Positions 1,846 to 64,000 of a stretch of DNA of 64,000 bases are shown piece by piece; the first letter of the stretch is position 1; each line of letters starts with the position of its first letter. Made by a program: the position numbers and the translations under genes. This DNA comes from Chiloscyllium plagiosum. Taxonomy: Eukaryota. Location of the stretch: assembly GCF_004010195.1 (NCBI RefSeq), contig NC_057718.1:10910325-10974324 (forward strand), given 5' to 3'. The notes under the pieces were generated by a model. That model ran no database searches. It saw nothing but the letters and a program-made list of their open reading frames with translations, and was not told the origin of the DNA.

Positions 1846-3639
1846 GTATGTAAGCAATAATTATCATGGCTTGATAGTGGTTTGTGAGCTTTTTAAAGAG
1901 ATGTATCGCATTATTAGTGCTGTTTGTGGGGTTATTGACAGGTTTTCAGACAAATGATGTTCTGTGTCCTGCGAGCACTGTAAATTATAAAAAAGGAAGT
2001 TCCAGGGAAGACAGATTAACTTAAAAAGTCTAACTAATGAGGCCTGCAGGTTTTGTAACTAAAACACTACTTGCATGTAAAATGCACAATAATCAAAGAT
2101 TATTTTCGAGCAAAGTGGAAATCACTCTGGGGAACTTGAGGTTTGACGTAGCAGGTGACAAGAAACTGTATCCACTGACAGGATGGTCATTAACCAATTG
2201 GAAAATGATAAAAGATAATTGGCAAACAAGCCAAGGGGTCAACAACAACAACTTTCATTAAAGTTAATTATGACCTGGAAAGGATGCTGGAAGCAAATTC
2301 AGAATCAACTTCAAAAGGGAGTTCCTATTGTTTAAAAATTGAAAAACAAATTGCAGGGTTCTGAGCCAAGAGCAGGAGGCCACTTTCCGAGAGAGAGCGA
2401 GAACTGGTAGTGTGAGCTAAAATCCTCTTCCTGAGTTGTTAGCTTTATGCTAAAAAGTTAAATTTTTAACGTGGCATCTGCATCACATAATTTATGTGGT
2501 CATTCTTATGCTTCAAGCATAATTTCAGGAAGACTATGAGACAGGAAGTGGAGGTGAAGTGGTTAAAATAAAGGGAAATTTTAATGTGTTGTTTAATCAA
2601 CTTAAGATTATTTGAGTTAAATTTATAAAATGAATATTTATTGTTACCGGGTTCACTAACCATACTTCGGCTGATATAATTAACTTTCTGGCCCAATTTG
2701 CTATAATAGTAGCATGGTGCATCTTTATGGGCAGAGGAAATGTGTAGTTTATTTTAAAACAAACTGTTTATTTTTGGATGTGAGCTTCGCTGACAATATC
2801 AGTCTTTACGCTCCATTGCTTATTAGTGTAGGTGGCACTGAGCTGCCTACAACTGAGCAGTTTGCTTCGCCTCTTCAGAGAGCTTTTAAGGATCAACCAC
2901 AGTATGTCTGGAGTCACGTAGGACAAGTATAGTGGGGCAAAGTCAATGGATTTCCTCCCCTGAAGGAAATGAGTGGGCCAGATGGATTTTAACAACTGTC
3001 CTGTAGCTTCATAAGGCTAGCTGTTTTGTTCCAGAATTAATTAATTCATTTTAAACTGCCCCCATCTGCCATTGTGGGATTTGAACTCGTGAGTCATAGT
3101 TTTATAGCATGGAAACAGACACTTCACTCCAACCAATTCATGCTGAACATAATCCCAAACTGAAGTAGTCCCACCTGCCTGCTCCTGGTCCATATTCCTC
3201 CAAACCTTTCCCATTGATGTAGTTATCCAAATGTCTTTTAAACATTGTAATTGTGTCCACATAACTTAACTGCTGTGCTACTTGTAACAACACTGGAGCT
3301 GACTTCTGGAAGAAGAGATCCTAATTGGAAAGTATATGCACATACCTTGACAATCTATTCGAGATCAGTCATTCACCAGCAGAGAATTTTGATGCTTATC
3401 ACTATCCTATGGAGACTGGTAGAATTTCAGCAGCTATATCAATTATTTGTCATAGATTAATGATTGGTGCCAGTCTGTATTTTTAACAGCAAGATCTTTA
3501 ATTTCACAGCATAAACAAAATCCACCTAAGCTTCTGCTTTATTCTCACCTGATTTCATTTGAAAGTTACTATTGGATTGACATCTACTTCCCAAGTTGTT
3601 GTCAACAAACAAAGTAAAATATTCTCATCGTCTACCCTT

Positions 3640-6012: not shown

Positions 6013-6654
6013 ATAGTGAATTGGTTTTTGAGAAATGGTACATGCTACTCATTTGCAGTTGTACAGACATTTAACAAAAATGAAATCTGAAATGTATTCT
6101 TTGTCCTGTAGGTTGTTGCTGTACTGAACTTTTATGCTGCTGCTTGCTGTCACTGTCTGGGCAAATTGTTGCATTTTTTTAATGAAGTCAATCAGCAATC
6201 TCTGGTGTTTTACGTAAATATTTTCAACTGTTAGATCTTCACCAATGTGCCCTCAGCTACTGTTTCTCTCAATACATGAACTCTTTTATGATGGCACTGT
6301 GTAAATCATTCACATGTTCATTCGTGTCTGTTAACTTTGTCCTTGTGTATTAGCTTGTCCATTTCCATGATGCTGTAAAGATGGGATATTTTTATCCTGG
6401 CATAGTGTAAGCAGTTGCAAAAGCAAAAAGAACAATTTAGAACTAAAGTTGTTGAAAGCACAGCACAAAAGTCTAAGTCTTCACTGGGTCTGGTGTATTT
6501 AAATTAATTTCATCAGAAGAAATATCTGGGCCAAGATATTCCTATTTGTCTGGCACTGGGAGCCTGGTGCTGTTTTCACTGGGTGATTAATCCAGAGTTG
6601 AAACTTTATTGCTGGAACAGCACAGCAGGTCAGGCAGCATCCAGGGAACAGGAG

Positions 6655-6690
6655 ATTCGACATTTCGGGCACAGGCCCTTCTTCAGGAAT
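6655..6690 (-). ncRNA. Minimal hammerhead ribozyme motif
   Basis: attc-CTGAAGA-a-GGGC-ctgt-GCCC-GAAA-tg-TC-gaat; perfect 4-bp stem I; stem III CpG decayed to TG. Confidence 0.7.
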
Positions 6691-7250
6691 GAGCAGAGAG
6701 TGTTCAGGAGAAGATAAAAGGTAGGGAGGAGGGACTTGGAGGAGGGGCGTTGGAAATGTGATAGGTGGAAAGAGGTCAAGGTGAGGGAGCAGGACAGTAG
6801 ATGAAGTCTATGTGGATTTTAATAAGGCCTTTGATAAGATCCCACATGGTAGGCTGCTCTGGAAGGTTGGATGGCATAGAATCCAGCAGGAGCTGGCAAA
6901 TTGGACACACAATTGGCTTGATGGTAGGAAGCAGAGGGTAGTAGTGAAAGGATGCTGGCCAGACTGGAGGCCTGTGACTAGTGGAGTGCCTGAGGGGTTG
7001 GTACTGGGCCCATTACTGTTTGTTATCTATATCAATGATTTGGATCAGAACATACAAGGCATGATCAGGAAGTTTGTAGATGACACATAAAATATGTGGT
7101 ATTGTGAACAGTGAGGAAGGTTGTCAGAAACTGCAGCAGGACCTTGATCAGCTGGGTAAGTGGGCTGAGAAATGGCAAATGGAGTTTAATATAGATAAGT
7201 GTGAGGTCTTGCATTTTGGAAAAGCAAATCAAGGGGTTTCATAGTGAGTG

Positions 7251-7285
7251 TTCGACGTTTCGGGCACAGGCCCTTCTTCAGGAAT
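7251..7285 (-). ncRNA. Minimal hammerhead ribozyme motif (intact core)
   Basis: ttc-CTGAAGA-a-GGGC-ctgt-GCCC-GAAA-cg-TC-gaa. Confidence 0.75.
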
Positions 7286-8871
7286 TCCTGACCTGCTGTG
7301 CTGTTCCAGCAATGAAGTTTCAACTTTGATCTCCAGCATCTGCAGACCTCACTTTCTCCTCGAAGATTAATCCAGAGACCCAGTAAATCTTCTGGGGAAC
7401 AAGGTTCAATTCCTGCTATGGCAGATGGTGGAATTTGAATTCAATAAGTGTGGAATTAAGAGTATAATGACAATCATGAAGTTAAGATTTACAAGGATGT
7501 TGCCAGGGTTGAAGGAATTGAGCTACAGGGAGAGGCTACTTTCCCTGGAGCGTTGAAAGCTGAGGGTGACCTCATAGAGATTTATAAAATCATGAGGGGC
7601 ATGGATAAAATAAATTGACAAAGTCTGTTCCTTGGGGTGGTGGAGTCGAGAACTAAAGGGTATAGATTTAGGGTGAGAGGGAAAGACATAAAAGGGACTT
7701 AAAGGGAAACGTTTTCACACAGGGTGGTGTGTGTATGGAATTAGCTGCCAGAGGAAGTGGTGGAGGCTGGTACAATTGCATTATTTAAAAGGCATCTGGA
7801 TGGGTATATGAATAGGAAGGGTTTAGAGGGATATGGGCCAAGTGCTGGCAAATGCGATTAGATTAGGTTAGGATATCTGGTCAGCATGGACGAGTTGGAC
7901 CGAAGGGTCTGTTGCCATGCTGGACATCTCTATGACTCTATAGCCAATTGTTGGAAGAACCCACCTGGTTCACTAATGTCTTTTAGGGAAGGAAGCTGCC
8001 CTCCTTACCTGGTATGGTCTACATGTGACTCCTGACCCATAGCAGAATGGTTGTCTACCCTCTGGGCAATTAGGGATTAGCAATAAATACTGGTCTAATC
8101 AGTGACACCCAAGTACCATAAATGTTTTTTTTTTAAATGGCAATTGAAACCTTTGGTAAATTGAGCCCTTTTTTAAAGTTTATATGTGGGTTGCGAGCAT
8201 CACCTGCTGGAGCAGCATTTATTGCCCATCCCTAAATGCCCCTTGAACTGAGGGACTTTCTAAGGCCATTTCAAAAGGTGGCTAAGAGTCACAAGTGTTG
8301 TAGGTTTGGAGTCACATATAGATCATGCCAGGTAAAGACAGCAGATTTCCTTCCCCAAAAAACATTAGTGAACCGTAAGGGTTTTTATAAAGTCAACAGT
8401 GGTTACATAGTTGCTGATAGGTTAGTTTGTATTTCCAGATTGTCATTGAGTCAAATTTAACCATCTATCATGGTGTGATTTGAATCCATGACCCCAAATC
8501 GTTACCCTGGGTTTCTGGATTACTAGTCCGATGACAGAGTGCCACAGCATCAGGTGGCGTAATGTCCAAGATATAGATTTTAAAGTTAGGAACTGCACTA
8601 GACTTTCAACAGTAATAATATACATTGCAGAACAAAGTTGTTTCAGTGAGCTGCTTGAATAGAGTAAGCTTTGGGTGAGGAAATAGAATTGGGGGAGTTA
8701 AAGTTTTTAGATTGAGTGGTAGACCTAGGGAAAGTTGCATTATGGGCTGAAGCAGTTGATAAATTAAGAAGATTGGAAGACCAAATCCATTGAAGATCAG
8801 CAACGATTGATTCAAAGGAGAGAGGCAAGGGTATTAAACAATGTGAAAGAAAAATAGATAAGTTAAGATAC

Positions 8872-9012
8872 TGAGCAGGAGAAAGTGAGGACTGCACATG
8901 CTGGAGATCAGAGTTGAGAGTGTGGTGCTGGAAAAGCGCAGCAGGTCAGGCAGCATCCCACTCCTCTGATGCTGCCTGACCTGGTGTACTTTTCCAGCAC
9001 CACAATCTCGAC
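8872..9012. mobile_element. Fold-back Penelope-like mini-insert
   Basis: Arms ~8910-8957 and ~8968-9012 are reverse complements; TAAGATAC at 8864-8871 and 9013-9020. Confidence 0.75.
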
Positions 9013-9289
9013 TAAGATACCAATCAGTGTGACCTGATTGAAAAGTAGAACAGCCTGGAGGGACTGTCTGACCTCTAATTTATTTGTGATGCTCAGCGTT
9101 CTCTGAATGGAGCAGCTTTGTGTGAGCAGCTTTGGCTGCATATGGTGCTGTTCCCCTTAACCCTGAATACTCCCCATCAAAAAGCATACATGGGTAATGG
9201 ACTTGAGAAACTGATCAGGATTCATGGAATTGTACTCCAGTAGCACATTGCAATGGGGGGAGAAGAGGAATTGGCAAAACATCTATAGC

Positions 9290-19262: not shown

Positions 19263-20209
19263 GTAAGTATAATTTCAAGAAGTATTTGAATTCATACCTG
19301 TCTGAATAGGTATCTCGCTGCACGTGGTCAAAAAAATCAAACTTACTTCTAAAGGTCTTATGTGTTCACTTATGTATTCAGCAGCTTAAATATTTTATAG
19401 TGCTGCTGTCTTGGGAGTACTTTAAAAGGTAGAAAGGTGAACAGCATAGTCAGTTGAAAGGAGAGCAGTAAAGAGAGATGCTTCTTAAAGGTTGTGAAAG
19501 AGGTAACAAGGTCAAATGGATATGAAAGAGAGCTTTCCAATCATGGAATGGAATAATGATTCAGAATGGTGAGGACTGAGGGTAACAGCTGGGATGCAGA
19601 CTCGAGGAAGATACTATGCTGTAAGTTAATGGAGGGATTAAAAACATTTATTAACTCACTCTATTTTGCTCAGAATGTTCTTTATTGATCTTGCATTTGG
19701 ACCTGATTGTGGCTAATTGGCAGCTGGGTTTGCAATTTAAGAAAATTGACTGCATTTCAAACAAAGATTTATCGTGAAGCACTTCTGGGATGTCCCAAGG
19801 ACTCAAAATAAGTTGCTACGTAAATGCAACTTAATTTCCATTTAAATAAACTTTTGAAAAATTGATTTTCATTGCCTTCATGTTCTGTGATGTGTTACTT
19901 ATAATGTTTATTAAGTCAAGGATGGACTGAGAAATCTATTTCTTTAAAGATGTTTTTCTTTCCAGTTTTGGTCCCCGCTCTTTAGCACCTCCCTTAGAAC
20001 CTCGTTTGTCTACTGAGGTATCTTCCTTCTGCTAGAAGGATGATGAGGAACATATTTGAGATTGTTGCATGATTTCAGTATGGCATATATTTGTTGCAAA
20101 CTGTTTTTTTTTGGAGTGGTTGTGGGATGGGGTTAATGAGGAGAAGGGATAAAATGCGCTAACATAATTTGCTTTGCCAAAACGTGGTGTTTCTGTACGT
20201 TTTCATCAG

Positions 20210-21434
20210 GCTCAACAAGACAAAGTCTCTTCTGCTCCAGTGATCATGACAAAACCCACCCATCCCGTAGCCATAGCCTCAGGCACTCCAAATGCTCCAT
20301 CGAAGATCGATTCAGTGGACACAGCTGGCCATGAATCCCAAGGAGACCCTCAAAGTCCTCCAAGTGAGGCTTCAAGTGGGTATTTCTCCCATAGTGTTTC
20401 CACAGCAACACTTTCGGAAACTGCTATGGTGTCAAGTGGCGACGTTGGCACACCTCCACCAGGTTGGGTCACTACAGACAGGGACACTTGTGCCCAGCTC
20501 CAAAGTCAAAGGTCAGCCACCAGTGAGGGTTCAGCACAACTAAATGCTGATATTAAATCAGATTCCTGCTTTGCTGGACATGTGGCGAATGGATCTCTGG
20601 GCATGCAGCATCAAATCACTCAAGTAACAGGTGGTGCGCCACTGATGTCCAACGAAGGTCAATTCCAACTGCAAAGCCCAAGCAAGGATGTGGGAAAGGA
20701 TTGTGGAAAAGTTCAAAATCAATCAGTAGGTCCGGAGGTAACAGCAGAGTCTGCACATGAGACAATGGTGGCAGAGCCCATGGAAATACCTGCATCAGTT
20801 GACACGAAAAATAGCTTCTCTACTTCTCAGACAACCAAAACACCATTGGACAAAACAGTCAGTCCCGATGTGACCAACCAGAAGGTCACCCTGCATTCTC
20901 TCCAAATCGATGAGCTGGAGGACTTGTTACCGGTACAGAAGTCAACCTCAGCGCTAACTGTCTCAAAGTCTGAGCCAAAATCTGATGCAACACAGTCCAT
21001 AACCACAGCATCTAACCCCTTCAGAATACAAAAGGTGAGGACGTCCGAGTTGAAGTCGTTCACAGGCATCTTGGGGGATGAAACCACTTGGCAAGATCCT
21101 GAAGATATTCTTGAAGATAAAGAAGCGCAGTGGTCAACAGAGGAATGGGACTCTGGGCCCTCTGGCCTAGCTGCAGGTCATGTACCAGAGCCATGTGACG
21201 ATTCTGAGAGCTCTGTACCTGCAAGTACAAGGTATGATGATTATCCTGAGTTATCAAGCGAGAAACTTGAAATTATTTCAGATTCTGAGGAAGCTGTTGA
21301 CACCATTCCTGAGTGGCTAAAAGAAGGGGAGTACGTCTCAGTTGGTACAAACAAGACTGGTACAGTCAGGTATATAGGATCTACAGAATTTGCTGATGGA
21401 ATTTGGATTGGAATTGAGCTGAATGTACCAGCAG
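20210..21434 (+). CDS. KIF13B: KIF13B large penultimate exon: S/T/P-rich linker plus N-terminal half of CAP-Gly
   Basis: catcag|GCT...CCAGCAG|gtaaga; 1225 nt within ORF 20174-21496; motifs SEASSGYFSHSVSTATLS, NPFRIQKVRTSELKSF, SDSEE..IPEWLKEGEYVSVG..GTVRYIG..F..GIWIGIEL. Confidence 0.95.
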
Positions 21435-22998
21435 GTAAGAGACTTGAGAATATCTTCAATGGGATTTTGGTTCTATACTTAAAAGAATGTTGTTAATGGG
21501 CTGAAAGATAGCTTTACCTAATTTCAACCCTTTTCTCATTGACTTTATAGCTGGTTTCTTAAGGTCTTGAGTTGCAGCTTCCCACAAGAGTGGCAAGAGT
21601 TTGCTTTTCTTTCGTTTTATTTCTGCTTTGTTATTTTCCTTTCTTATTTATTCTCTTGAAGTGCTTCTTTATTTGGTGTCTTGTGTTGGATAAATAATTA
21701 AATTTGTCTCCACTATAATTCATAAATGCTGCTTGTGAATCTTGTGCAACCAAGTAACAAACAGAAATGTTAATATCATATGGTCAACAGCATCTCTAAA
21801 ATTATTTTGTTGCAACTTATTATTTGCGATAATGTTGTTGATTATCTAGTATGGAAACATTTCATTTCTGCTCCAAATTACAAACCACAACTTAAGTTCA
21901 TAAACAACTCTAGTTCTGCATGGCAAATATAGCATTTTTCGTGATGCTGTATCCTTCCAGTGTGGACCATAATAGTGTTTGGGTGATGTGAAAGCTGAAA
22001 TGGGAAGTTATACGGATGCGCAGCACAGGAGGAGTTAATGTAGCTTATCGTCTTTAAAATATCCACTGACAGAGTCATGGAGAAATACAACATGGAAACA
22101 GACCCTTTGGTCCAACTCCTCCATGCCAGCCAGATATCCAATATAAACCTAGTCCCATTTGCCAGCTTTTGGCCAATTACCCTTTGCCTTCTCCTATGAA
22201 CCTTTATCTTCCTTTTGCTTCAAATATTTATCCACTTCTCTAAGAATATACAATGATCACTGTCTATCACACTCTACAAACTAGCCCATTCCTCCAATAT
22301 TCCTTTCCACAAAAATTTGTCCCATCATGAGGAGAAGATGAAAAGAAAGATTCCTTCATCTTAATGGCCTTGCAATTTTGTACACTTTTGCTTTTAACCA
22401 ACCAGGATGTAAATCCAATGAGCTGGGGGAATGATTTGTTTTAATTCTTGAGATTAGCTCTATTGTGAGAAGTTAATCTTTTTTGTGTTTTTTTTCTCCC
22501 AGGAGTTGTAGTAAAAGATCAGGTGTACTTCTGTCCCTATGTTCCTTTTCATCATGTTCTTGGAGAGAGTGGTTGTGTCTTTGACCTGTTTGGGCCACTG
22601 CTGCCCTCAGCCAGTCATTTTGTTGTGTGAAAGTGCCTTCTGGAGAAAAGCTCCAAGTATTTTGCTGTTCTGCAGTAATGGTGGGATTTAAAGATTCACC
22701 TCTCCCTCTTCACATCATCTTTTAGACCATAAGACCATAAACAGGAGTAAGCTATTTAACTGCTTGATCGTGCTGCACTTTTCAAAAGGATCAAGGCTAA
22801 ACTGGCATTCCTTATGTCCACTTTCCTGCCTTTTCCCCATAACCCTTTTGAGAAACAGTCTAATGGGAGAAAGTTAAATATTGCATATCTTGTCATGGGG
22901 CTAGTTTATGGTTGTTCACTTACTTTGATTTGCTATCTGAATGTTTTCACAATTTGCTTTAAGTTTAAAGTTCTAAAAACACTTTTGCTATGTTTCAG

Positions 22999-23309
22999 GA
23001 AAGAATGACGGTTCAGTCGGTGGAAAGCAGTATTTCCGATGTAATCCAGGCTACGGAGTATTAGTTAGGCCAAACAGAGTTGCAAAAGCCACTGGCTCAG
23101 TGAAACGGCGTAGCACCGGCCTCCGGACTCAGTTGGCTGCAAATTCGGAGAATCGGAGGAGCGGGAACTTTTCCAAATCTAACCCAAACTTGTCAGCTCT
23201 CACTGCAATGGCCAAATCTGAAGGAGGAACAGGACTCCGATCAGGTGACAGGACTCCAAGGAAGAGTGAGCATAGGAAATCCTGGTCTGCTGAGCAAAAA
23301 CCTTCATGA
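22999..23309 (+). CDS. KIF13B: KIF13B terminal coding exon (CAP-Gly GKNDG motif to stop)
   Basis: tttcag|GA AAG AAT GAC GGT; GKNDGSVGGKQYFRCNPGYGVLVRP...RRSTGLR...HRKSWSAEQKPS*; TGA at 23307-23309. Confidence 0.96.
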
Positions 23310-38029: not shown

Positions 38030-38930
38030 GGATGAAAGTTTGCTCACTGAGCTGGAAGATTAGTTTTCAGACATTTCATCACCATATTAGGTAACATCTT
38101 CAGTGAGCCTCTAAATGAAACACTAGTGCTGGAGCCCGCTTTCTATTTATATGTTTGAGTTTCCTAGGGTTGATATTATTTTCTGTGTGACATCATTTCC
38201 TATGGTGATGTAATTTCCTTTTCTTTGTCTCGGGGGTAGTAAATGGGATCCAAGTCAATGTGTTTGTTGATAGAGTTCTGGTTGGAATGCCATGTTTCTA
38301 GTAATTCTCATGCGTGTCTTTGTTTGGCTTGCCCTCGGATGGATGTGTTGTCCCAGTCGAAGTGGTGTCCTTCATCATCCATATGTAAGGATACTAGAGA
38401 GAGTGGGTCATGTCATTTTGTGGCTAGTTGATGTTCATGTATCCGTATCCTGGTGGCTAGTTTTCTGCTGTTTGTCCAATGTAGTGTTTGTTACAGTCCT
38501 TGCAAGTATTTTGTACATGACATTAGTTTTGCTTGTTGTCTGTTTCAAGTTCATTAGCTGCTGTTTTAGTGTGTTGGTGGGTTTGTGGGCTACCAGCATG
38601 CCAAGGAGTCTGAGTAGTGTCTAGTATCTCACTAGTACCCTTACATATGGATGAGGAAGGACACCACTTTGACTGTGGACAACACATCCATCCTAGGACA
38701 AGCCAAACATGACACAAATGAGAATTCCTAGAAACATGGCATTCCAACCAGAACGCTATCAACAAACACAATGACTTGGATCTCATTTACCATCCCCTGA
38801 GAAAAACACCAGGAAATGACATCACCGTAGAAAAAGACGTCACCACAGGAAATGACATTGCCAACCCTAGGAAACGCAAACATATAAACAGGAAGCAGGC
38901 TACACTACCAGAGCTTCATTCAGAGGCCAC
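38030..38930. mobile_element. Penelope-like element remnant (GIY-YIG endonuclease) with inverted partial copy
   Basis: Minus strand encodes frameshifted VMYKI..CKDCNKHYIGQT; 38630-38928 is an inverted copy of ~38105-38398 (REFLETWHSNQNAINKHNDLD); hammerhead at 38067-38107. Confidence 0.85.
38067..38107 (-). ncRNA. Hammerhead ribozyme motif (family C, somewhat decayed)
   Basis: ctca-CTGAAGA-t-GTTACC-taatat-GGTGAT-GAAA-tg-TC-tga. Confidence 0.6.
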
Positions 38931-45344: not shown

Positions 45345-45474
45345 GGGAGAAAGTGAGGACGGCAGATGCTGGAGATCAGAGCTGAAAAATGTGTTGCTGG
45401 AAAAGCGCAGCAGGTCAGGCAGCATCCAAGAAGCAGGAGAATCGACATTTCGGGCATTAGCCTTTCTTCAGGAA
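45345..45474 (-). mobile_element. Penelope-like terminal fragment (family A) ending at the hammerhead motif
   Basis: Reverse complement of ~62-158 plus extension; hammerhead 45440-45474 has a stem II mismatch. Confidence 0.7.
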
Positions 45475-46249: not shown

Positions 46250-48050
46250 ATTTATATAGAACATTACAGCGCAGGACAGGCCCTTGGGCCCTCAATGTTG
46301 CGCCAATCTGTTGAACCAATCGGAAGTCCATCTAACCGACACTATTCCATTCTTGTCCACATGCCTATCCAATGACTATTTAAATACCCTTAAAGTTGGC
46401 AAGTCTACTACCATTACAAGCAGTGCGTTCCACATCGCTACTACTCGGAGTAAAGAAACTACCTCTGACATCTGTCCTATGTCTATCACCCCACAATTTA
46501 AAGGTTTGTTCCCTCGTGCTAGCCATCACCATCAGAGGAAAAAGGCTTTCACTGTCCACCCTATCTAACCCTCTGATTATCTTGTATGTCTTAATTAAGT
46601 CACCTCTCAACCTTCTTCTCTCTAACAAAAAACAGCCTCAGGTCCCGCAGCCTATCATAAGACCTTCCCTCCATACCAGGCAACATCCTAGTAAACCTCC
46701 TCTGAACCCTTTCCAAAGCTTCCACATCCTTCCTATAATGCGGTGACCAAAACTGTACACAACAGTCCAAGTGCGGCCACACCAGAATTTTGTACAGCTG
46801 CAGTATAATTCATGGTTCTGAAACGCAATCCCTCTACTAATAAAAGCTAACACACCGTATGCTTTCTTAACAACCCTATCATCTTGGGTGGCAACTTTCT
46901 GTACCTGGTCACAGAGATCTCTCTGCTCATCTACACGACCAAGAATCTTACCATTAGTCCAGTACTCTGGAGGTTGTCCATTTTGGAAAGACAAATAAGA
47001 ATGCGGAATACAGGGTTAACGGTAGGGTTCTTAGTGAGGTGGAGGAACAGAGAGATCTTGGGGTCTATGTTCATAGATCTTTGAAAGTTGCCACTCAGGT
47101 GGATAGAGCTTGTAAGAAGGCCTATGGTGTATTAGCGTTCATTAGCAGAGGGATTGAATTCAAGAGTCGTGAAGTGATGTTGCAACTGTACAGGACTTTG
47201 GTTAGGCCACATTTGGAGTACTGTGTGCAGTTCTGGTGGCCTCACTTCAGGAAAGGGGGCATGGAATGCGCTGTCTGTGGGAGTGGCAGAGTGAGAATCA
47301 TTGGCGAACTTTAAGTGGCAATTGGATACGTACATGGATGGGTGCTTAAGCCAGGATAAATGTTCGGCACAACATCGTGGGCCGAAGGGCCTGTTCTGTG
47401 CTGTATTGTTCTATGTTCTGCATTCCTGTTACTCCTTCCAAAGTTAACCACCTCACACTTTTCTGTATTAAACTCCATTTGGCACCTCTCAGCCCAGCTC
47501 TGCAGCTTATCTAGGTCTCTCTGTAACCTGCAACATCCTTTGGCACTATCCACAACCCTACTGACCTTAGAGTCATCTGTAAATTTACTAACCCATCCTT
47601 CTATGCCCTCGTCCAGGTCGTTTATAAAAATGACAAACAACAATAGACCCAAAACAGATCCTTGCTGTACCGCACTAGTAACTGAACTCCAGGATTAATA
47701 TTTCCCAACAACTACCACCCTCTGTCTTCTTTCAGCTAGCCAATTTCTGATCCAAACTACTAAATCACCCTCAATCCCATGCCTTCGTATTTTGTGCAAT
47801 AGCCTACCATGGGGGACCTTATCAAATGCTTTAGTGAAATCCATATACACCATATCAACTGCTTTACCCTCACCCGCCTGTTTGATTACCTTCTCAAAGA
47901 ACTCAATAAGGTTTGTGAGGCACGACCTACCCTTCACAAAACCATGTTGATTATCCAGAATCAACTTATGATTCCTAATCATCTGTAGATGATTATAAAT
48001 CCCATCTCTTATAAGCCTTTCCAACACAACTAACCCACAACCAAAGTAAG
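46250..48050 (-). mobile_element. CR1/HER1-like LINE ORF2 3' region, interrupted by an opposite-strand CR1 fragment (~46970-47418)
   Basis: ORF fragments QHGFVKGRSCLTNLIEFFE, YMDFTKAFDKVPHGRL, LLFVIFINDLD..SKFTDDSK, RPHLEYCVQFW, RRRLRGDLIKTYKI. Confidence 0.92.
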
Positions 48051-49421: not shown

Positions 49422-50172
49422 CTACAGAATGTAAACAAGAGGAGGGAAAAAAACACATTAAAAGATTTCTATGTAATGTTCCAGAGTTTGGAGAGCGAAT
49501 TTCTTTCCATCTCCATTTCCAAACAACAAGTGGTTTGGTCAATGAATGCATCAAAACAAAGCTACCTTTTGATTAGTAAGAGGTATTTCACTGTGTAAAG
49601 ACTCAAAGTTTGTAACAGAGAGGAGCACCCCACTCAAATCCTACTTTTCCATTCAAACAGCCATTTGGTTGGTTCTTTTTCATGCCTCTCAGGCTTTTTA
49701 GTGTTTCACCATTACATTACTGCCCCCCCAATGCTGGGAGACGTACCAATAATAAAACTAACCAAATATCAGCCAAATTTCAGAGGACAGAATCTACTGT
49801 CCTGTTGCATGTTTAAGTAGAGCTGTACACATCTGTTGCAGTGGAACCTCAATAAGGGTGTTACGGAGGAACAGGAAGAGGCTGTTCAGCCTCTCGAGCT
49901 TGTTCTGCCATTGAAATAATGGTGGCTCCATATCTTCGCTCCACAATCTGCTCTACCATCGGCCTGCAAAATCTACTGCTCTTGGATTTAAATGAAGGTG
50001 CTGATTACTTTCCTAGTTTTGAATATAGGAAATCATGCCATAGGTGGGGCTCCTGAGCTGCAGCAGGCAATGCCCAACACAGTTGGCTAACATCATCCTA
50101 CAAAAGATGGAAGACAGCCTTTGGTAAATTAAACCTCAACAGTGAAGCAACTGAATTGTCATTTCAACCAAC

Positions 50173-50657
50173 CTCATGAGCTCTTCAACCCTTTCTTCCA
50201 GGTCTGTCTCTTCTTCCATGGCATGGAAACTTCCCATCCTCTGGCTATTGGTAGTGTGGAAACGGTTGGGTGACAGCCTGCCATTGGCCACTGACAGTTT
50301 CTCGTTGCTGCAGCTCTCCCGTCCATTCAGGTTAGTGCTGCACGGTGGCGGCGAGGTGTCATAGCTGTTACTCGGAGACGGTGACGCCCCACTGTACTGC
50401 GTCTGTGTGGCGGCTGTGACTGTCGAGGATGAAGCAGGGACATTGTTGCTGTTGCCGTAGGAACTGTTGCTGTTGCCGTAGGAACTGTTGCTGTAGCTGT
50501 GCCGTTTGCCAAATTTCTCGGTGTGTTCCTGGTCGAGCCGGTCCAACGTCTCCAGCGCATGGATTATGTCACGTTTCGTCATCCCGCTCCTCCGAAGTCG
50601 CTGCAGCAAGTCAATCTGTTCGATTGTAAACCTGGGCTCATCCGTGTAGTGTGACAT
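50173..50657 (-). CDS. HMBOX1: HMBOX1 first recognisable coding exon (exon starts at 50667 or 50664; ATG 50657)
   Basis: MSHYTDEPRFTIEQIDLLQRLRRSGMTKRDIIHALETLDRLDQEH...VEELMR|gttggt; upstream exons not securely identified. Confidence 0.96.
50444..50494 (-). repeat. HMBOX1: Perfect 21-nt coding tandem repeat (2.4 copies) in HMBOX1
   Basis: tgttgctgttgccgtaggaac x2 plus partial copy; encodes SNSSYGN twice. Confidence 0.95.
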
Positions 50658-51969
50658 TGTGTTACTGCTAAATGGAGCACAGGAAAAAGGAATTAATTAA
50701 GTCCCCAAATGAAGAACAGTCAGACCAACATCAATTGCCTCCTATTTGGTAACTGCTATCCCACTTTATAATGGAATATAAAAAATGTGGTTCAATTAAC
50801 AACCCAACATCACCAATGCCCAGGGGTTATCATTGAGTTCACCTAGGCACAGTTTCAACATACTACAAAAAGCAGAATCAAAAAGTATCCACACTTGGTG
50901 TAACTTGGTGTTGCTATAGTTATGCACACTATTCATTATTTCAAATTTCTTCCACCGAATGACAGCCTTGTCACTAGCAATTTAATGAATTGTTACAACA
51001 GTGTCTTAGCACGACAAGTTCTGAAAGACAAAATGCTTAACAAGTATTTTGTGGATTTCCTATGGATATAATGCAAGATTTTCACTGCATTCACACCCAA
51101 GCAACTATTATTCAGAATGCGAGCCAAAAAAGTTGTATTCAGATATTTACTTCCTTGTAAAGATACCATGTTATAACAGAAAAGACAACTTCTCCAGTTT
51201 GGCAGCTGAATTCTGCAAAAAAAACAAGGGGCCACTAAAATCAGCCCTTGTAGGGATTGTCGTTATGATGATAATTCATTTCACTTCAGGTCATTTACCA
51301 CCAACGTCATCCTTCCCTCTGACAGGAGGCCAGAACACTGACTGTCACAACCTCTAACATTCCTGACCACAAGATAAGCTTTTTACCACAAACAGCACCA
51401 GACCAGGATTGCTATGGAGGTGAAAATGGATAATGACCCAACTTCACTTCTGACTCAGCTCTTCTGCTAAAACACTTGGTTTTACATTTCTTGCCTCCAG
51501 CCTTGGCCATTTTAACTAACTCTGGCTATCTTGCACATTCAATCTTCTAAGACTTTAAAGATCATTGAAAAATCTTGTCAGCTAGTCCTAGGTTATACCA
51601 AATCGCATTCACCCATCTCACCTGAGCTCTACGGCCTACACTGGCACATGCTCACCAGTGATGCAATTTTAATCTATGTATCCTTGATCTCAAATCTTTA
51701 AATGGCCTCCAACCTCTCCAGCTCTTTTCCTATCTATGGAACTTTCTCCAACACTCCAAAATCTATGCTTGTCCAATTTTGGTTTCATAATATTAATGCT
51801 TCGCTGCTGGTATTCATGCAGTTACCTTCACCCTAAGCTAGGAAATTCCCTTCCAAGACATCCGTGTCTATCCCTCACTTTTCTCCTTTGAGATCCTTAA
51901 TCGATAGTCTTATTTTGTTTTATAATCTTTCTGCAAAGAAACATGGGATGTTTTATTACAAATAATTGA

Positions 51970-62090: not shown

Positions 62091-62199
62091 TCATCCTAGT
62101 AAATTTCCTCTGAACCATTCCCAAAGCTTCCACATCCTTCCTATAATACGGTGACCAGAACTGCTCGCAATACTTTAGGTGGGACCTCACTAGTGTCTT

Positions 62200-62371
62200 C
62201 GAGGAGAAAGTGAGGGCTGCAGATGCTGGAGATCAAAGCTGAAAATGTGTTGCTGTAAAAGCGCAGCAGGTCAGGCAGCATCTTCAGGAAGGGCTTATGC
62301 CCGAAACGTCGATTCTCCTGTTCCTTGGATGCTGCCTGACCTGCTGCGCTTTTCCAGCAACACATTTTCAG
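62200..62371. mobile_element. Fold-back Penelope-like mini-insert with 14-bp flanking duplication
   Basis: CTCACTAGTGTCTT at 62186-62199 and 62372-62385; near-perfect ~46-bp arms around a rearranged hammerhead. Confidence 0.88.
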
Positions 62372-64000
62372 CTCACTAGTGTCTTGCAGAGCTGAAGCAT
62401 GATCTTGTGGCTCTGAAAATCAATTCCCCTTCCAATAAACGCCAACACACCATATGCCTTCTTAACACCCCTATCAATCTGGATGGCAATTTTCAGGGAT
62501 TTATGCACCTGGACACCGAGATCTCTGTTTATCTACACTGTCAAGGATTTACCATTAGCTCAGTACACTGCATTCCTGTTATTTCTTCCAAAGTAAACTA
62601 TCTCACACTTTTCCACATTAGACTCCATTTGCCACTTTTCTGCTCAGCTCTGCATCTTATCTATGTCCTTCTGTAACCCACAACATCCTTCAGCACTATC
62701 CACAAATCTGCCTAAGTGTCATTCGCACATTTACTAACCCATCCTTCTAAGCCCACATCCAGGTCATTTATGAAAATGACAAACAGCAGTGGCCCCAAAA
62801 CAGATCAGTGTGTGGCACACCACTGGTAACGGAGCTCCTGGATGAACATTTCCCATCAACGACCATCCTCTGTCTTCTTTCAGCTAGCCAATTTCTGATC
62901 CAAACCACTAAATCACCTTCAATCACGAAACTCCATATTTTGTGCAATAACCTACCGGGTGGAAACTTATCAAATGCCTTACTGAAGTCCATATACAACC
63001 ACTTTACCTTCATCCACCTGTTTTGTCCTTTCTCGAATTCAATAAAGGTTAGAAAGACACGATCTACCCTTCTAAAAACTGTGTTGACTATCCCTAATCA
63101 AATTATTCTTTACCAAATGCTTATAAATCCTAACTCTTATAATCTTTTCCAACACCTTACCCACAACCGAAGTAAGGCTCACTGGCCAATAATTACCAGG
63201 GCTGTCCCAACTCCCCGTCTTAAACAAGGGAACAACATTTGCTATCCTCCAGTCTTCCAGCACTACTCCGGTCAACAATGATGACAAAAAAGATCGAAGC
63301 CAAAGGCTCTGCAATCTCCTCCCTGGCTTCCCAGAGAATCTGAGTATAAATCCCATCCGGCCCAGAGATCTTATCTATTTTCAGATCTTCCAAAATTGCT
63401 AAAACCTCCTCTTTGTCAACCTCAATCCCATCTAATCTTGTAAGCTGTCTCTCCATATCCTCACTAACATTGCCCATTTCCAATGTGAATACTGATGAAC
63501 AATATTCATTATGTCCTCAGATTCCACACAGAACTTTCCATTACTATCTTTGATTGGCCCTAATCTTACTCTAGTCAGTCATTCTTTTATTCCTGATATA
63601 CTTATTGAAGGCCTTAAAGGTTTTTCTTCACCCTATCCACCAACAACTTCTCATGTCCCCTCCTAGCTCTTCTTAGCCCTCTCTTTAGATCTTTTCTGGC
63701 TAACTTATAACACAAGCCACCTAACTGAAACTGGACACCCCTCACCCTCACATAAGTCGTCTTCTTCCCCTTGACAAGACTTAGCAGATTATTCTGTCCT
63801 AATAGACAGGTAGGTATTTAAAATCCCCTATATCTATAGCTTTGTCATGCCTGCTCATTTTTGTAGTACAACTACAAAGCTTTATTTGATGATGAAAAGA
63901 AACATGCTGCCAATGCATTTTGTCTTGCATTCAATCAGGGACAAATGCAAGAATGCCAAATAATGACATTTTATACTGCAAATCAAACTCTGATTAGTTG

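Follow-up and report, generated by a model that had tools for sequence, protein, structure and literature searches.

A fragment of a CR1 reverse transcriptase gene enclosed by ends of a putative Penelope-like element

How does an internal piece of one retrotransposon come to lie between the ends of another? The question is raised by a locus in the window, that is the whole 64,000-nucleotide stretch of Chiloscyllium plagiosum DNA analysed here, in which two identical copies of GATTAATCCAGAG (6585-6597 and 7365-7377) enclose a unit of 767 bp. An earlier note, made from the letters of this DNA, had read the unit as ends of a Penelope-like repeat family (hereafter family A) around a fragment of CR1 reverse transcriptase (RT), captured as foreign RNA in one event with several template switches. 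Its claim of a 13-bp duplication around a 767-bp chimeric unit is borne out: the duplication is exact, has no further copy on either strand of the 64-kb window, and is the sole repeat of at least 6 nt common to both unit ends, with a chance of about 1e-5 when 20x20 positions are allowed.

Layout of the unit and of family A

The flanks of the unit belong to an older repeat (Table 1). More specifically, 6545-6596, 7366-7480 and 7936-8039 align collinearly to a single SINE-like paralog at 8575-8301, which holds the target word TAATCCAG once; because the flanks are collinear with one paralogous SINE, the 767-bp unit interrupts that repeat. Alignment scores equal to those of the SINE head and of its continuation were reached by 4 of 300 and 0 of 300 shuffles, respectively, and a tRNA scan of the head returned 0 genes. 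The copies of the SINE-like repeat at 7955-8100 and 8210-8540 are oppositely oriented, and a third, partial match (3051-3086) is found beside another CR1 tail.

Table 1. Features of the 767-bp unit, its target and its surroundings (positions in the window)
Feature	Position	Strand	Basis or remark
Head of old SINE-like target repeat, up to left duplication	6545..6597	+	Alignment to paralog 8575-8514 (minus)
Left target-site duplication	6585..6597	+	Last 5 nt (CAGAG) match family A sequence at the tail-less end
Left arm: tail-less direct terminal repeat and pyrimidine-rich family sequence from upstream of it (about 100 nt)	6598..6787	-	Alignment; read depth
Minimal hammerhead motif 1 (sequence motif)	6654..6690	-	Stem-III palindrome altered by CpG-type substitution
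Junction 1 (family arm to CR1)	6780..6789	+	Placement ambiguous over this range; alignment to CR1 paralog 47800-47905
Cargo: internal piece of CR1-type RT gene, about 465 nt	6788..7250	+	RVT_1
Second direct terminal repeat, 35-nt stub (hammerhead motif 2)	7251..7285	-	97% to 6656-6690
Perfect 14-bp palindrome at head-to-head junction	7278..7291	.	Sequence
Inverted terminal repeat with 53-nt CCTGA-to-CCTGA deletion and 38-nt tail (7323-7360)	7284..7364	+	Family alignment
Right target-site duplication	7365..7377	+	Exact copy of 6585-6597
Target SINE-like repeat, continued	7378..7483	+	Alignment to paralog 8524-8404
Separate 5'-truncated CR1 3' end with tail, outside the unit, in the same SINE	7484..7941	+	Loose ends before 7484 and behind 7941

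Read along the plus strand, the unit consists of family A antisense (6598 to about 6787), CR1 RT sense (about 6788 to 7250), a hammerhead antisense (7251-7285) and a family A end sense (7284-7364). Read along the minus strand, it starts with an inverted terminal repeat carrying the 38-nt tail and continues with the 14-bp palindrome, the 35-nt direct-repeat/hammerhead stub, the cargo and, finally, upstream sequence with a tail-less direct repeat. This minus-strand layout is the textbook Penelope arrangement. The left arm is 86% like the family copy at 1-158 (6593-6747, minus strand), and read depth at 6738-6798 is at the level of family A. At the right, a family A end in plus orientation is present as the earlier note had described (7287-7366), though without the 53 nt between two CCTGA words. 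The second hammerhead of that note is likewise found as a minus-strand motif at 7251-7285, but it is not isolated, since the palindrome fuses it head to head to the right end. The two arms differ from each other at 1 of 37 positions (plus one junction letter) and at 1 of 35, and they have in common subfamily letters that are absent from the other window copies of family A.

Those other copies occupy four places. Two are cargo-free head-to-head fold-backs, at 62200-62371 and 8877-9012 within the wider intervals 62186-62385 and 8864-9020, with duplications of 14 bp and 8 bp, respectively; 45346-45474 is a single family A end and 1-158 is cut by the window edge. Target-site duplications (13, 14 and 8 bp) are thus found in three of the four family A copies tested, the one at 45346-45474 having none. 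A head-to-head inverted repeat with a palindromic junction is common to the focal unit and both fold-backs, and the junction of the 62200-62371 copy and the 5' end of the 45346-45474 copy also lie at the hammerhead front edge. Because the fold-back and its palindromic junction are normal for family A, as the two cargo-free copies illustrate, only two of the three inner junctions of the focal unit are unusual.

The 3' ends of family A fall into two classes 33-38 nt apart: among eight aligned ends, four are tail-less near 7322-7328 (on the axis of the right arm) and four are tailed near 7360, the latter position being the commonest family end, as judged by loose ends, in all four sequencing runs. 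Purified Penelope protein primed without target-RNA homology (PMC11167929), and here three ends (focal left, focal right and that of the 62200-62371 copy) have an apparent match of 2-5 nt. A terminal-repeat frame starting M-L-P-D-L-L is open through the tail in three copies (62281-62198, minus; 8956-8876, minus; 7287-7370, plus), as would be the case if the element ORF began within the repeat. A domain scan of 50 of the 146 window ORFs returned no ORF with a telomerase-like RT and a GIY-YIG endonuclease, and a protein search with the terminal-repeat frame, a weak search, gave three candidates, none of them scored. Family A is therefore placed by its structure as a putative endonuclease-bearing Penelope-like element; such elements have a 30-40-nt tail (PMC8557442).

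The name hammerhead rests here on a sequence motif. Cores of the form CTGAAGA..GAAA occur on the minus strand at 6686 and 7281. Motif 2 is broken 3 nt past the predicted cut site. A core with helices I and II was recognized in four of the five stretches parsed, the fifth, in the 62200-62371 copy, having a broken core. An Rfam scan gave 0 matches at gathering score, and free folding of the hammerhead stretches was no better than that of shuffles (z +0.1 to +1.4, 4/4 stretches); both null results are expected because the motif is thought to work as a dimer. Compared with the minimal hammerheads described for Penelope-like elements (PMC4209133), the motifs are alike in their conserved core, 4-bp helix I, helix II after an unpaired base and almost absent helix III, as well as in forming opposite-orientation pairs, which in truncated copies lie 100-700 bp apart. 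Unlike those hammerheads, motif 1 has a changed stem-III palindrome, helix I of motif 2 is reduced to 3 bp, and the assignment is sequence-based. Hammerhead-like motifs of two further repeat families occur at 38103 (minus), 57091 (minus) and 55721 (plus); near the first of these, 38107-38927 forms a large inverted pair.

Reads and contigs of relatives

Four of 24 listed DNA runs, from three organisms (A, B and C), were aligned to 6250-8050 at 85% likeness, those with small shares being left out. A contig of organism A, which may derive from the assembled sample and may thus not be independent, agrees with 6250-6620 at all 371 nt (0 differences) and reads through the left junction. Organisms B and C contribute one contig each, matching 6250-6584 with 17 differences in 321 and 16 in 335, respectively, and each extends exactly 76 letters past 6584. 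With left-aligned joints, a site holding the 13-mer once should yield a piece that stops at 6584 and continues from 7365. Counted from 7365, 76 letters reach 7440, which is 30 nt after 7410, a site at which this SINE copy departs from its family. Since the letter at 7410 is private to this SINE copy, a contig break is expected shortly beyond it. From these contig ends we infer an empty site in both relatives (2/2); the 6584-to-7365 joint itself is absent from the 15 joints listed of 3285.

The earlier note had expected related sharks to have an empty site with a single GATTAATCCAGAG, and the contigs of B and C appear to end as that expectation predicts. It had also named Penelope ends lacking the CR1 piece in relatives as contrary to its reading; both relatives (2/2) instead appear to lack the whole unit. 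A cargo-free intermediate was seen in neither of the two, and two relatives leave room for one inside the lineage of organism A. Among the displayed reads and contigs, none runs across both cargo junctions, the inner junctions or the whole unit.

Reads from other copies of the family that fit the repeated arms were taken to account for the joints linking 6593-6610 to 7315-7329 and 6647 to 7252, which were therefore disregarded. Two further joints, 7359-7801 and 7360-7922, connect the family A 3' end to CR1 3' sequence with sides of only 21-42 letters, and the former reaches up to about 10-15 times the single-copy contig depth in all three organisms; these may represent a multi-copy Penelope-in-CR1 junction elsewhere.

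The cargo, its junctions and its age

The RVT_1 domain matches the cargo with E 8e-13 for 6791-7087 and 0.008 for the next frame. The frame is broken by a 1-nt insertion at 7087, an extra base that is absent from 126 of 153 reads. The cargo ends within the RT gene, in agreement with the description of about 460 bp of CR1 RT lacking the CR1 3' tail. Its RT homologues, which we take to be CR1 proteins, number 800 at E<=1e-20; the best 120 are 45-71% identical and mostly bird proteins, and the best of these 120 (71% over 99 aa) is too distant to give a subfamily sequence. The closest homologue and another (P0050 and P0077) bear bacterial species labels on contigs of 1.6-1.7 kb, yet are vertebrate-CR1-like; the labels probably reflect contamination of those records.

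Microhomology at the junctions, to which the earlier note had pointed, is apparent at one and not clear at the other. Junction 1 has an apparent 8-nt match, GGTGAGGG, in register with CR1 paralog 47800-47905, its family side being assigned from read depth. At junction 2 (7250/7251), no clear microhomology is present, and the joint lies 3 nt past the predicted ribozyme cut site, or 0-1 nt from it if a short internal deletion is assumed among the final CR1 letters. A junction exactly at the cut site was rejected, given the three further family letters.

That note had regarded a target-site duplication belonging to the CR1 piece as speaking against its reading. We looked for one and found no significant duplication: the only end repeat of the cargo is the 5-nt GTGAG (6781 and 7244), a match no better than chance (about 1 expected in 41x41 positions), and the same end-match test on the neighbouring CR1 also yields a 5-mer. 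A donor for the cargo was not found in the window: over 6.5 kb upstream and 56 kb downstream, similarity reaches at best 66-67% and no word of more than 16 nt is shared. This lack of a local donor points to capture in trans. The neighbouring CR1 (7484-7941) lies on the strand of the cargo and collinear with it, starting 87 codons on from the cargo end; it has no clear duplication and contains 6 CpG. Derivation of the cargo from this neighbour is unlikely, since the SINE is interrupted without loss and the neighbour's start is a normal 5' truncation (the contigs of the relatives end before 7484).

Host divergence between the organisms is about 5%, or about 2.5% per lineage, so a clock would put the age of the insertion at no more than about 2.5% per lineage. 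Relative to family reads, at least 14 near-fixed differences fall in the cargo, as counted in the 40 difference rows listed (of 324); 0 of these are CpG-type and 12 of 14 change an amino acid. Conserved RT columns are broken at 9 of 53 positions in the first frame, with P 0.004, 0.023 and 0.14 at 1.9, 2.5 and 3.6% divergence; the single break among 19 columns of the second frame is shared with the closest homologues and was left out of the count. Comparison of the arms and duplications with the cargo gives p 0.26, 0.12 and 0.036 for 14, 17 and 22 changes, of which the figure of 14 is read-based and that of 22 assumed. CpG is absent from the 465-nt cargo (0 vs 7 in 300 nt of arms, p 0.0014); far more diverged CR1 copies in the window retain CpG at 0.20-0.32 of expectation, so zero CpG is no simple clock. 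Taken together, these comparisons give moderate support to a cargo that is older than the insertion and was already decayed at capture. An older-looking cargo is evidence against later CR1 retrotransposition; age does not separate an RNA from a DNA template.

Routes to the unit and known systems

We hypothesize, at about even confidence, that the unit results from a single Penelope-like integration that was primed on both strands of the target and in which synthesis switched to a CR1 copy that had already decayed. The integration would have taken place in the lineage of organism A, after its split from organisms B and C. An endonuclease would have nicked the old SINE with a stagger of 13 bp, the duplication being seen and the enzyme presumed. 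Both free 3' ends would have primed reverse transcription on element RNA at the two start sites of the family, 33-38 nt apart. The positions of these ends are observed; two-strand priming is proposed because of in-vitro work on another Penelope, whose purified protein cuts and extends both strands, with two start sites defining the tail (PMC11167929). The top-strand copy would have begun at the tail-less site, covered about 190 nt, and used a TGAGGG-type short match to jump to a CR1 template, of which about 465 nt of decayed sequence from elsewhere in the genome would have been read; it would next have jumped back to the element RNA near the hammerhead and run to the front edge. The bottom-strand copy would have started at the tail site, slipped over 53 nt between two CCTGA words and reached the same front edge, and the two copy ends could have annealed through AT to give the palindrome. 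The CR1 template would most likely have been a cellular transcript with CR1 antisense. The exact duplication, the published layout, the contig ends of the relatives, the two end classes, the similar arms and the older cargo argue for a single integration, a case we judge evenly poised.

The capture could instead predate this insertion, having occurred in a source element (either a non-autonomous derivative of Penelope or a fold-back that lay within an old CR1 and was read through), one RNA of which was copied here in a single event. We consider this unlikely but deserving of weight: the same single duplication and layout would be expected, and an old cargo would be explained without two jumps at this site, whereas the two cargo junctions must still have formed once and there is no sign of an amplified family. 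At position 6804, the family-majority letter is absent in 11 of 237 raw reads, which by a rough estimate limits an amplified composite to about 20 copies or fewer, and the depth of non-majority contigs amounts to 5.6 single-copy units in organism A vs 6.5 and 19 in B and C, again a rough measure and one of depth, not copy number. Slightly less likely again is an ordinary Penelope unit that was later broken at or near its hairpin and repaired by a DNA polymerase copying an old CR1 locus, or patched from a DNA template during sealing. The arms can indeed pair into a long hairpin, the microhomology at junction 1 suits repair as well as RT jumping, and repair accounts for the old cargo, the missing tail and the missing duplication of its own; against this stand the lack of a local donor in the window, the lack of an intermediate in the two relatives, and the position of the cargo between two direct repeats, away from the palindrome centre.

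The age of the cargo bears on the alternative raised in the earlier note, that a CR1 inserted by retrotransposition into a fold-back already in place and later lost its 3' end, tail and duplication to a deletion. Such a CR1 would have to postdate the arms, but the cargo has more changes than they do, and two extra events would be required within about 2.5% divergence; CR1 is very abundant here by read depth and GTGAG stands at both cargo ends, but that match is at chance level and its right copy lies inside CR1 coding sequence. We regard this history as improbable. An assembly artefact affecting the cargo or its junctions is very improbable: while no displayed piece spans the whole unit or its inner junctions, the duplication is exact at both ends, the left junction is present in a contig (perhaps of the assembled sample), and the contigs of the relatives end where the right flank predicts. 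Among these readings, a single integration is best supported, in line with the one event of the earlier note; of the several template switches it had envisaged, only two involve the cargo. Capture of foreign sequence by Penelope machinery is of a kind already published (PMC3846280), but the RNA of that claim is less firm, as a DNA template or a pre-formed source element also fits.

That published case concerns Adineta vaga, in which captures by Penelope pLTRs, including an NRPS gene, place the cargo between direct repeats and one inverted repeat; the same paper also mentions non-coding sequences caught between solo pLTRs with duplications (PMC3846280). The present unit resembles these captures in having two direct repeats and one inverted repeat, a palindrome at the inverted junction and one duplication of 8-13 bp, and in that the site is empty in an allele or a relative, here as deduced from contig ends. 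It differs from what is described there in its 465-nt CR1 cargo, its vertebrate host and the cutting of one direct repeat to 35 nt. It is therefore a new example of cargo capture between Penelope repeats and not a new mechanism. CR1 cargo in a Penelope unit, or such a capture in cartilaginous fish, was not found in a literature search covering main texts and few subscription papers.

Comparison with other systems places the unit further. Ordinary Penelope-like insertions likewise comprise an inverted 5'-truncated copy, a tail at one end only, a hammerhead in the terminal repeat and two end positions, but the middle of this unit is foreign and not the element ORF (PMC8557442, PMC11167929). Bipartite and tripartite LINE template-switch chimeras also join unrelated pieces under one duplication and are read as double template jumps; unlike these, which end in the 3' end of the mobilising LINE, both ends here are Penelope-type and the LINE is the passenger (PMC2104539). 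Animal non-LTR retrozymes are similar in being non-coding units with two same-strand type I hammerheads, here motifs 595 nt apart, derived from Penelope terminal repeats; in contrast to them, the unit has no tandem units, only 35 nt are repeated and copy number is low (10.64898/2026.07.22.740005). Classification as a retrozyme was rejected, as the unit has neither the tandem units of the definition given in that text nor a complete hammerhead in each repeat unit (10.64898/2026.07.22.740005).

The unit is a dead, low-copy vertebrate fossil, datable and resolved to the nucleotide, whose site appears to be empty in two relatives. It bears on how Penelope-like elements finish insertion and pick up foreign sequence; a single case proves little. 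A broader speculation, which we think improbable, is that Penelope RT routinely switches to unrelated cellular RNAs and returns to its own RNA at the end left by hammerhead cutting, so that cleavage would serve as a handle for remobilisable, cargo-carrying units with two hammerheads, the route to animal retrozymes being caught at birth. If true, this would lead directly from Penelope elements to such retrozymes, here with another retrotransposon as cargo.

Elsewhere in the window, CAP-Gly domains and an HNF-1 N-terminal domain are encoded by exons at 20168-21496 (plus), 22977-23309 (plus) and 50136-50696 (minus).
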